Source of the DNA: Escherichia phage E26
Strand: one strand, 5' to 3'
Sequence record: MN655998.1
Length of the DNA: 64,000 bases
Every line of letters begins with the position of its first letter. Positions within the stretch are counted from its first letter, which is position 1. Of the stretch, positions 9,656 to 50,626 are shown piece after piece. The position numbers and the translations under genes are program-made. The notes under the pieces are model-generated. The model saw nothing but the letters and a program-made list of their open reading frames with translations. It was not told the DNA's origin and did no database searches.

Positions 9656-10159
9656 TTAAATTAAAGAAAATTTGTAAATCTCTATCAGATCGCCGTTACA
9701 CGCGTAAACTTCCTCGATCTCGTCAAGGATCATGGTCGTCCCTGTCTTGTATATGCACTCGCGCTCATCTGCCAACATAGCATACAAAGACAGTCGAGTA
9801 GTCGGATTGTCATACTCTTTAGACACCACTCGGTCAATAGCATGTTCGTAATAATTCATGCAAGGCTTGGTAGGTTTTATTGCAATAATCTTTCCTGTTG
9901 CATAAACATCGGTTGCAAAGTCCTCTGCTGTTGATTGCAGTGGCGTAAAGCTCATAGGACGCTCTACAACGAAAGAATCACCTACAATTAAGGTATCCAG
10001 CTTACGGCCTTCTCTTTTGCTCACACCGCGATACAAGGCTTCGTGATGCACTAACCGCTCGGTCTTTTCGATCAATCCATTAAGGATCGACATATCGATA
10101 TTTTCTTTAGAGTTCATCACTTCATCAATGATGTTAAGTTCTTCTGGTGTAAATTGCAT
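9656..10159 (-). CDS. putative ADP-ribosyltransferase (ModA/ModB-like)
   Basis: Ordered R (LYRGV), S-T (LQSTAEDF), E-x-E (ADEREC) triad; T4 mod position. Confidence 0.5.
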   Translation of the reverse strand: MQFTPEELNIIDEVMNSKENIDMSILNGLIEKTERLVHHEALYRGVSKREGRKLDTLIVGDSFVVERPMSFTPLQSTAEDFATDVYATGKIIAIKPTKPCMNYYEHAIDRVVSKEYDNPTTRLSLYAMLADERECIYKTGTTMILDEIEEVYACNGDLIEIYKFSLI

Positions 10160-10162
10160 AAT

Positions 10163-10192
10163 AAAAAAGCCTCCAATCTTTCGACGGGAGGC
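10163..10192 (-). promoter_or_regulatory. hairpin sequestering the GGAGG Shine-Dalgarno of the ADP-ribosyltransferase gene
   Basis: GCCTCC-N12-GGAGGC stem plus U-run; ATG at 10159. Confidence 0.4.
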
Positions 10193-10221
10193 ATAATAAA
10201 ACCATTATAGAGTAGTGTCAA
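10193..10221 (-). promoter_or_regulatory. early promoter (TTGACA-N17-TATTAT) initiating inside RBS-sequestering hairpin
   Basis: rc tgtcaa 10216-10221; -10 at 10193-10198. Confidence 0.4.
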
Positions 10222-12684: not shown

Positions 12685-12714
12685 AATATAGTCTCCTTAG
12701 AGTTTCATTATAGA

Positions 12715-13350
12715 TCAATCGAATGTAGAAAGCAACTGTTTTGTTTCTTTCAGTTGTCGTTCAAGATTTTTGCGTTTCTCTTTAAGTTGCATTTTAGCAT
12801 TATTTCGCTCTCTTGTAACCTCTTTATCAATGCTCTTATTCCAGTTATCAATATCAGAATAAGTTGGCATACCCAATTCTAAACCTAATGCGGTTGGATG
12901 CAGGGTAACAGTCCATAAACCGCTAATCTTCTTAAATAGGTCTGGGTGTAGTGTACTATCTACATCTTCCGGTGTCAACTCTTTTTCTTCTTTCAGTGGT
13001 GGGTTCTCGTCATATGGTTCCAGTGCATTTACTTTAATATCAGATACCTCATCAAAGAATCCGCGTACATCCGCAGGAAATACACAAGCAATTTCCCAAC
13101 CGTGTTCACGCAGAGAAGTAATATTTTTCACTTCCCCACCATGTGCGATAATTGACGTAACATTACCATCAAGATCCACAGAATTTACAAGAAACGGCTT
13201 ATCGTCTGTCAGATCATTATAAAATTGTGCTTCGGCGGTAGTCATCTCCAGAAAAAGGTCACGAATAGGTCGACCATCTGGTGCATTGCCTTCCTTGAGA
13301 GTGTAGATTCGACTTACGATCCATTTTGGCGGTAAAGTATTAGCGATCAT
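12715..13350 (-). CDS. hypothetical protein
   Basis: ORF tiling; AGGAG RBS. Confidence 0.5.
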   Translation of the reverse strand: MIANTLPPKWIVSRIYTLKEGNAPDGRPIRDLFLEMTTAEAQFYNDLTDDKPFLVNSVDLDGNVTSIIAHGGEVKNITSLREHGWEIACVFPADVRGFFDEVSDIKVNALEPYDENPPLKEEKELTPEDVDSTLHPDLFKKISGLWTVTLHPTALGLELGMPTYSDIDNWNKSIDKEVTRERNNAKMQLKEKRKNLERQLKETKQLLSTFD

Positions 13351-13378
13351 GTTATATCTCCTATCAAATCATTCACCA

Positions 13379-13394
13379 GCGCCCCGCAGGGCGC
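13379..13394 (-). promoter_or_regulatory. intercistronic GC-rich stem-loop after gene 41
   Basis: GCGCCC-cgca-GGGCGC; no U-tract on minus strand. Confidence 0.3.
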
Positions 13395-13400
13395 ATTTTA

Positions 13401-50014: not shown

Positions 50015-50217
50015 TTACATTTAGGGCAATGCGGTTCTTTAATATAATACCCGTCTGTCTTTGGAACACTAACAGGAGCGGTTTTTATATTGTATTCAGT
50101 GAAACAACGAAAACAAGTTACGTTTTCTACAGACTGACGTTTCACCCAATCACCGGAATATAGATCATTTTTATTTGTCATATTCAACCACCACAATGTT
50201 AATGTCTGGAGTAGCAA
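49987..50217 (-). CDS. hypothetical zinc-ribbon protein
   Basis: CFRCF...CPKCKC. Confidence 0.4.
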   Translation of the reverse strand: MLLQTLTLWWLNMTNKNDLYSGDWVKRQSVENVTCFRCFTEYNIKTAPVSVPKTDGYYIKEPHCPKCKCRLYWSHL

Positions 50218-50626
50218 TATTAATGATCTCTTCTACACATTCCCACTCAAGGCCACCGATACCGCAACCGATTTTAGGAATATAGAAAGGCTGTATAGCA
50301 CCTTCAAAAACATCATTGATAGTCTCAAATCCTTTCAGGATAGCACCATATTCAGCATTTGGACCCGGTCGGAATTGGGTATAGAGATTCACCCCGCACC
50401 AGTTATAACCATTAACTTGATGCGTCCAGACACTAAACCCACCCAGCTTTTCTACCTTACCGCGAGAAGTTTGCTTGTCAATCTCTAACGCTTGCGGGAA
50501 CTCTTTCGCGATCTTTGCAGCAATACCAGCGCCCATAGTATGAAAACAATTACAACCATGAATTAAATGACCGTTTCCTTGTTTAAACAGGGCGATGAGA
50601 TCGTCCTTTACAGTATCAATAATCAT
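50171..50626 (-). CDS. putative macro-domain (ADP-ribose binding/processing) protein
   Basis: HGCNCFHTMGAGIAAKIA glycine-rich loop and about 150 aa size. Confidence 0.45.
   Translation of the reverse strand: MIIDTVKDDLIALFKQGNGHLIHGCNCFHTMGAGIAAKIAKEFPQALEIDKQTSRGKVEKLGGFSVWTHQVNGYNWCGVNLYTQFRPGPNAEYGAILKGFETINDVFEGAIQPFYIPKIGCGIGGLEWECVEEIINIATPDINIVVVEYDK

Follow-up and report, generated by a model that had tools for sequence, protein, structure and literature searches.

Two separate, known T4-type functions very probably lie behind the two genes described here, a Mod ADP-ribosyltransferase and a Tk.4/AdfM macrodomain, which have ADP-ribose chemistry in common and do not form a coupled module. 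The window, by which we mean the whole stretch of 64,000 nucleotides that was analysed, holds one copy of each, as found by running both profile HMMs against all 632 ORF segments. The region of both genes is 98–99.8% identical to many published Krischvirus genomes, with Phage ELT4 as the best match. Krischvirus comprises the RB49/Phi1/JSE-like Straboviridae, with E. coli as hosts. Near-identical genomes already carry annotations for both genes, whose T4 orthologs have assigned roles, and the main value of this work lies in a better annotation of standard T4-type phage genes.

The two open reading frames were recovered exactly where the preliminary description had placed them (Table 1). The strings that it quoted were also found, namely LYRGV (residues 42–46), QSTAEDF (75–81) and ADEREC (130–135) in the 167-aa protein and HGCNCFHTMGAGIA (23–36) in the 151-aa protein. 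Both are real genes: for each, dozens of phage genomes carry an annotated CDS with 99–100% identity, and the diverged homologs keep a conserved core.

Table 1. Features of the transferase and macrodomain genes; positions are those of the window, and functional names are predictions.
Feature	Position	Strand	Detail
Mod-family (ModA/ModB-like) R-S-ExE mono-ADP-ribosyltransferase gene	9656..10159	minus	167 aa ORF
Predicted catalytic codon, R44	10028-10030	minus	
Predicted catalytic codon, S70	9950-9952	minus	
Predicted catalytic codon, E132	9764-9766	minus	
Predicted catalytic codon, E134	9758-9760	minus	
Hairpin	10169..10192	minus	GCCUCC...GGAGGC then U6; RNA fold -15 kcal/mol
Sigma-70-like promoter match	10193..10221	minus	TTGACA, 17-nt spacer, TATTAT; 11/12 in consensus scan
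tk.4/AdfM-type stand-alone macrodomain gene	50171..50626	minus	151 aa ORF
Macrodomain key codon, N26	50549-50551	minus	
Macrodomain key codon, Q84	50375-50377	minus	
Macrodomain glycine loops			residues 31-36 and 120-125

Judged by its sequence and its modelled fold, the 167-aa protein is a genuine Mod-family R-S-ExE ADP-ribosyltransferase, presumably an active one, and it is the single Mod-family transferase of Krischvirus. It matched PHROG 832, 'RNA polymerase ADP-ribosylase', with E=1e-20, and BLASTP aligned it with T4 ModB (33% identity over 113 aa, E=8e-11) and T4 ModA (23% over 159 aa, E=2e-6). The gene order srd-mod-56-61 is common to Phi1 and T4, and the locus is that of modA/modB in T4. 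Counterparts in Krischvirus records are labelled modB (in Phi1), 'RNA polymerase ADP-ribosylase' or 'ModA or ModB ADP-ribosyltransferase'. Scans of the protein against Pfam, NCBIfam and PADLOC gave no significant family; its homologs carry the precomputed tag PF26816, for which the local Pfam scan of the transferase returned no match. Searching the PDB with the single sequence gave no match, and the PDB profile search gave non-significant matches only. As Pfam, NCBIfam and the PDB sequence search were without a match, the identification rests on PHROGs, on the homology to T4 and on the fold search.

The AlphaFold2 model of the transferase has a pLDDT of 95.1. Foldseek found 103 PDB matches for it at E<=0.001, and the leading ones, with TM 0.5–0.6, are the R-S-E toxins Certhrax, CDTa, Iota Ia, VIP2, C3 and ExoT. 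Phage ModA/ModB models in BFVD superpose on it with TM 0.84–0.93. The preliminary description had proposed an ADP-ribosyltransferase like ModA/ModB, and the PHROG, T4 and fold matches all agree with that proposal. The family itself is small and phage-restricted, as far as sequence searches tell: an exhaustive HMMER profile search of 1.84 billion representative proteins recovered 25 relatives, and a word-indexed homolog search only three.

In the alignment of 25 sequences, which includes T4 ModA and ModB, residues R44, G45, S70, E132 and E134 are invariant (25/25), the other invariant positions being M1 and K18. The aromatic-Arg element of the R-S-E class is present as Y43-R44-G45, the serine motif as S70-F71-T72 (within PMSFTP; S70 in 25/25) and the ExE element as E132-R-E134, with Glu at both positions in 25/25. 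An ExE motif predicts arginine specificity in ADP-ribosyltransferases. R44, E132 and E134 align with R72/E163/E165 of ModA and with R73/E171/E173 of ModB. The R and ExE parts of the R / S-T / ExE triad read earlier from the three quoted motifs are right, since these residues are invariant and aligned in this way; the S-T part, placed at S76/T77, had to be moved. These two positions vary (ITT and IAI in the closest homologs, and other residues family-wide), and the invariant serine is S70, six residues upstream of S76. In the AlphaFold2 model S70 sits on a predicted strand (69–72) that is followed by a helix (75–85), and a strand followed by a helix is the usual position of the STS motif. The S70 motif is also in register with the TSTS/STS motif of the Vis toxin, in a weak alignment (E=0.075). 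We regard the corrected catalytic serine of the Mod family as a modestly new point, and in the annotation of the Mod protein the predicted catalytic serine should be placed at S70. For the T4 proteins, R73 of ModB is catalytically required, the R73A variant being inactive (PMC10468400), and R72/E165 of ModA are given as catalytic (PMC8120803).

An early-type promoter of its own probably drives the transferase gene. The sigma-70-like site lies within the 69 bp that separate the gene from gene 56, and, by analogy with T4 early promoters, this consensus match would fit early expression. The hairpin that separates the site from the gene has a z-score of -3.6 against shuffles, and its 3' arm includes GGAGG, the Shine-Dalgarno sequence of the transferase gene; it may act as a read-through terminator, mask the ribosome-binding site, or do both.

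T4 has modA and modB as a tandem pair, whereas Krischvirus has one mod gene. The product, at 167 aa against 200 and 207 aa for ModA and ModB, is shorter because the N-terminal ~30 residues of the T4 proteins are absent. In the full alignment the transferase is about equally distant from the two, with 23% identity to ModA and 27% to ModB; its placement as ModA-type or ModB-type was tried and rejected, the two values being too close. Given this near-equal distance and the absent N-terminal extension, a ModA-type specificity (RNA polymerase alpha R265) and a ModB-type specificity (S1, EF-Tu, RNAylation) are not assignable. Krischviruses, with their one shortened Mod, might represent a further, third lineage of the family that modifies targets of its own.

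Whereas the fold, the R44/S70/E132-x-E134 site and the homology are established by the comparisons above, activity and targets can be proposed by analogy. The transferase most likely uses NAD+ to mono-ADP-ribosylate arginines of host proteins early in infection, which would serve host takeover or anti-defence. For ModA and ModB, the proteins known to be modified are RNA polymerase alpha, S1, EF-Tu and ribosomal proteins (PMC10468400, PMC8120803), and by the same analogy likely targets here would be the alpha subunit of RNA polymerase, translation factors or both. The known targets of ModA and ModB argue against a protein that acts mainly as an anti-defence effector, inactivating a host immune or toxin protein, and not as a modifier of transcription or translation. 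We consider such an effector unlikely, although it retains some weight: MazF is modified by T4 Alt (PMC8120803), and in the passages of a 2025 preprint that deal with Mokosh type I, T4 Alt is needed to evade this system and the Bas37 ModA ortholog is labelled in the screen (bioRxiv 10.1101/2025.11.20.689424). Moreover, the two roles can coexist in one transferase, and its sequence does not discriminate between them.

The 151-aa protein is, on sequence and model, a macrodomain and the ortholog of T4 Tk.4/AdfM. It scored 28.7 bits against Pfam Macro PF01661 (gathering cut-off 22; E=1.3e-6), covering profile positions 1–118 of 118, and matched PHROG 335 with E=1e-60. T4 Tk.4 aligned with it over the full length (153 columns) at 43% identity, with E=9e-44, and the order tk...tk.4-vs-vs.1-regB is common to T4 and Phi1; the orthology follows from this full-length identity together with the shared gene order. 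The AlphaFold2 model has a pLDDT of 96.4 and gave 155 Foldseek matches in the PDB at E<=0.001. All the leading ones are macrodomains, among them TARG1, DarG (T. aquaticus and M. tuberculosis) and Poa1p. By sequence, the best PDB relatives are the M. tuberculosis DarG macrodomain, BT1257, SCO6735, TARG1 and Poa1p, and DarG was the only family that it matched in NCBIfam and PADLOC.

Residues N26, M31, G34, A36, G120, G122 and G125 are invariant in all 62 macrodomain sequences aligned. The glycine loop noticed in the preliminary description is therefore a genuine macrodomain loop, given the invariance of M31, G34 and A36, and its assignment of the 151-aa protein to the macrodomains is upheld by the Pfam score above the cut-off and by the sequence and fold matches to DarG and TARG1. 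Indeed, the Foldseek PDB searches kept both proteins within the families named for them, ART and macro. In Krischvirus records the counterparts are labelled tk.4, 'phosphatase', 'macro domain protein' or 'hypothetical protein'. The label 'phosphatase' stems in databases from ADP-ribose-1''-phosphate / O-acetyl-ADP-ribose (Poa1p-type) activity. We suggest that 'phosphatase' and 'hypothetical protein' be replaced, for the Krischvirus tk.4, by AdfM-type macrodomain, probable anti-DarTG2 DNA de-ADP-ribosylase.

The active site differs from those of the best-known relatives at one telling position. In profile alignments both K84 of TARG1 and the catalytic Lys of DarG align with Q84, which lies within NLYTQF, and D125 of TARG1 aligns with G124. 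Neither the DarG catalytic Lys (K80 in T. aquaticus) nor the Lys84/Asp125 dyad of TARG1, as defined in PMC9411070, is present in the phage macrodomain at the aligned positions. The residue is Gln in 61 of the 62 family members, and in T4 Tk.4 too. It also aligns with residue 105 of chain 5E3B_A, which corresponds to Q85 of SCO6735 if a 20-residue tag is assumed. SCO6735 hydrolyses ADP-ribose linked to thymidine in DNA and gives protection against DarT; its Q85A/E variants are inactive (PMC9411070). The essential Gln of SCO6735-type DNA thymidine-ADP-ribose hydrolases is thus present here as Q84, and of the active sites compared, that of SCO6735 appears closest. As the DarG Lys and the TARG1 Lys/Asp dyad are both absent, DarG-like chemistry in this protein rests on the SCO6735 precedent, and Gln84 would serve where DarG uses its catalytic Lys. 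The passages of the preprint on T4 AdfM make no mention of catalytic residues (bioRxiv 10.1101/2025.11.20.689424). The near-invariant Gln at the position of the DarG catalytic Lys in the T-even/Krischvirus AdfM clade is, in our view, modestly new.

A role against DarTG2 is suggested by work on other phages. As described in the relevant parts of the 2025 preprint, growth of a T4 transposon library on a DarTG2 host singled out tk.4 as the one significant gene, a clean knockout of tk.4 made T4 sensitive to DarTG2, and the gene received the name AdfM, for anti-DarT factor Macrodomain; the evidence for T4 AdfM given there is genetic, consisting of the knockout phenotype together with structural similarity (bioRxiv 10.1101/2025.11.20.689424). 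Similarly, the AdfM of PhiKZ strips the thymidine-ADP-ribose made by DarT2 from DNA oligonucleotides, rescues DarT2 toxicity and protects the phage, and its N23A variant has reduced activity (PMC13309987, a 2026 Cell Reports paper). A literature search for a link between Krischvirus and DarTG found no paper. With orthology, fold and residue equivalence established here, we infer an enzymatic activity and an anti-DarTG2 phenotype from T4, PhiKZ and SCO6735. By this analogy the macrodomain most likely removes the ADP-ribose that host DarT2 sets on thymidines of single-stranded phage DNA, and replication could then continue in DarTG2-carrying E. coli. The preliminary description had offered, as one of two suggestions, a countering of host ADP-ribosylation defences. 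This fits the DarTG2-sensitive tk.4 knockout of the T4 ortholog; in view of the T4 knockout and the PhiKZ AdfM results it is the supported suggestion of the two, and it is already published for T4, as those parts of the preprint show.

The specificity could differ from that of T4 Tk.4, the identity being only 43%. Even so, we find it improbable that its main substrate is anything but DarT2-modified DNA; the alternatives considered are ADP-ribose-1''-phosphate, O-acetyl-ADP-ribose, ADP-ribosylated RNA (in defences such as CmdTAC) and ester-linked protein ADP-ribose. Poa1p, a phosphatase of yeast that acts on ADP-ribose-1''-phosphate, ranks with the best matches by fold and by sequence (E=1.5e-12 with the profile), but its fit is poorer (TM 0.70, rmsd 4.7) than that of TARG1 and DarG (TM 0.75–0.78). 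The top fold match, TARG1, is a protein Glu/Asp-ADP-ribose hydrolase, but its catalytic dyad is the one that is absent here. A broader role would fit the very wide spread of the family in phages, and RNA ADP-ribosylating defences have been raised as possible targets of phage counter-defences (PMC11825919); against this stand DarG as the only NCBIfam/PADLOC match and the screen on the DarTG2 host, from which, in the preprint's account of it, the T4 ortholog emerged as the single significant gene (bioRxiv 10.1101/2025.11.20.689424).

The macrodomain might instead counter DarT2 mainly as an antitoxin mimic, by binding and inhibiting the toxin and not by hydrolysing the DNA adduct. We judge this very improbable. 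Near-perfect conservation of N26, Q84 and the loops that bind ADP-ribose suggests that selection acts on catalysis, and PhiKZ AdfM is catalytic, with reduced activity in N23A (PMC13309987). The C-terminal DarT-binding domain of DarG is absent too, the 151-aa protein matching positions 9–141 of the 338-position DarG model. Nevertheless, the DarG catalytic Lys is missing, SCO6735 Q85A, though catalytically dead, retains an inhibition of DarT that exceeds that of DarG and TARG1 mutants (PMC9411070), and ICP1 AdfB counters DarT through direct binding (PMC11481870). Along with hydrolysis of the DNA adduct, which remains the preferred activity, the AdfM clade might add toxin binding, as the dead SCO6735 does. 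By analogy the clade would work like DarG and yet is not DarG, having neither the Lys nor the C-terminal toxin-binding domain.

The other suggestion of the preliminary description was a linked writer and eraser, or regulated ADP-ribosylation. The two genes are on the same strand and 40 kb apart; the macrodomain gene begins 15 bp after vs, and the transferase gene has its own promoter-like site. By tblastn, the macrodomain family was found in ~2,800 phage records, of Escherichia, Klebsiella, Salmonella, Pseudomonas, Vibrio, Acinetobacter and Aeromonas phages, and the Mod-type transferase in 490 T4-like phage records. The names among the listed matches for the transferase are all enterobacterial, Pseudomonas, Vibrio and Acinetobacter being absent among the top organism names listed. 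No homolog of T4 Alt, 30.3/AdfN or 61.2/AdfA was found in the 64,000-nt window by tblastn; the reference genome Phi1 carries alt, a second transferase gene (ORF183) and the NADAR gene 30.3 elsewhere. The ADP-ribose that ExE transferases attach is linked N-glycosidically to arginine; enzymes of the ARH1/DraG type reverse this linkage, and macrodomains are not known to cleave it. ADP-ribose hydrolases including ARH1 were cloned in the study of ModB (PMC10468400).

That the macrodomain reverses the ADP-ribosylation made by the phage's own Mod (or Alt), so regulating the modification of host proteins in time, is extremely improbable, and we rejected it in view of the distribution of the genes, their layout and the chemistry of the linkage: writer and macrodomain do share one genome, one strand and the early/middle region, and T4-type phages generally carry both, but the genes stand in different transcription contexts 40 kb from each other, their distributions are uncoupled, the ExE site predicts a linkage removed by ARH1/DraG-type enzymes and not known to be cleaved by macrodomains, and the tk.4 phenotype of T4 arose specifically with DarTG2 in what the preprint reports of it (bioRxiv 10.1101/2025.11.20.689424).

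Taken together with two separate T4-type functions, a more specific proposal can be made tentatively, which we hold to be plausible while a little short of probable: that the T-even/Krischvirus AdfM proteins form a distinct, Gln-based SCO6735-type anti-DarT2 class (without Lys/Asp), possibly with toxin binding in addition, and that the Krischvirus Mod is a third lineage. Q84 offers a concrete mutagenesis target for the reversal of DNA ADP-ribosylation by a phage macrodomain. In addition, Krischviruses are used in phage therapy collections, and a probable DarTG2 resistance has some relevance to host range.

Compared with the named systems, the macrodomain shares with T4 Tk.4 the motifs HGCNCFHTMG, NLYTQF and IG(C/A)GIG, including the Gln of YTQF, whereas 57% of the residues differ. 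Its closest relatives outside Krischvirus are Vequintavirus proteins (67–68% identity) and not T4 Tk.4. The DarG macrodomain of DarTG2 (PDB 5M31/5M3E/5M3I) is the best PDB relative by sequence (E=7.6e-8 with the single sequence and 9.5e-14 with the profile) and also a top fold match (TM 0.75–0.78). However, the phage protein scores 46.5 bits against the DarG equivalog model NCBIfam NF048014, for which the cut-off is 250 bits, it is without the DarT-binding C-terminal domain of DarG, and its gene, unlike that of DarG, has no adjacent DarT. Human TARG1/OARD1 (PDB 4J5S) is the top Foldseek match (E=3.5e-9, TM 0.78, 27% identity), with Q84/G124 here in place of its K84/D125 dyad. The AdfM of PhiKZ (gp104) is likewise a stand-alone, DarG2-like macrodomain of a phage and is needed on DarTG2 hosts, but it keeps the DarG-type Lys (K78) where the present protein has Q84, belongs to an unrelated phage family, is expressed late and is imported into the phage nucleus (PMC13309987). 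Finally, SCO6735 (PDB 5E3B), encoded on the chromosome of the bacterium Streptomyces coelicolor and connected with DNA damage and antibiotic production, shows low sequence similarity (E=1.9e-5) and has NMIGQH in place of NLYTQF; it is, all the same, likewise a stand-alone macrodomain, of one class with the phage protein, and has Gln (Q85) at the Lys position.

The Krischvirus macro protein, the ortholog of T4 Tk.4 (AdfM), is 67-68% identical to macro proteins of Vequintavirus (Bas59 EduardKellenberger and EPFV3), but only 43% identical to the syntenic T4 Tk.4. This comparison suggests that the macro gene was exchanged or replaced in place across unrelated E. coli phage lineages.

Other ADP-ribose genes of Krischvirus were mapped on the reference genome Phi1, where alt, ORF183 and a 30.3 homolog lie outside the window. 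ORF183, which adjoins alt, is a second 'ADP-ribosyltransferase' of 274 aa, and the 30.3 homolog is a NADAR protein. T4 30.3, also NADAR, is the anti-DarTG1 factor AdfN (PMC11825919). Together with the two genes in the window, these bring the whole phage to three transferases plus two distinct domains that remove ADP-ribose. No homolog of the T4 anti-DarTG1 factor 61.2 (AdfA) was found in the window by tblastn (E<=1); genes 61 and 61.1 are both present there. A hypothetical ORF of 211 aa is located one gene past 61.1, roughly at the place expected for 61.2.

Database homologs of the transferase carry the precomputed Pfam tag PF26816, which was not returned for the transferase itself by a local Pfam scan. 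The serine shared by all 25 sequences of the family alignment is S96 in ModA, S99 in ModB and S70 in the window protein, whereas ModA S109 pairs with T83 of the window protein. The triad serine of ModA is given as S109 in a review table (PMC8120803), and judging from the alignment the published numbering may need another look.

Coordinates of the features discussed
Feature	Sequence	Position	Strand	Remark
Transferase gene	window	9656-10159	-	Mod family
S70 codon	window	9950-9952	-	invariant serine
Near-consensus promoter, hairpin and U6 run	window	10169-10221	-	gap separating gene 56 and the transferase gene
Phi1 ORF021 position	window	~12700-13400		
Macro gene	window	50171-50626	-	compared locus L007, 2501-2959
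alt, ORF183, 30.3 homolog	Phi1 NC_009821 (L006)	112891-115845 and 125616-126095		outside the window

Upstream of the transferase gene, we identified a near-consensus promoter match (TTGACA, 17-nt spacer, TATTAT), directly followed on its 3' side by a stable hairpin, GCCUCC...GGAGGC, with a folding energy of -15 kcal/mol and a z-score of -3.6; the U6 run comes next. The Shine-Dalgarno sequence of the gene, GGAGG, lies inside the 3' arm of this hairpin. Initiation about 7 nt past the -10 element would yield a transcript without the 5' arm, so that termination at the hairpin, or masking of the ribosome-binding site, would be limited to read-through transcripts. This arrangement of promoter and hairpin recalls the regulation of the T4 genes e and soc.
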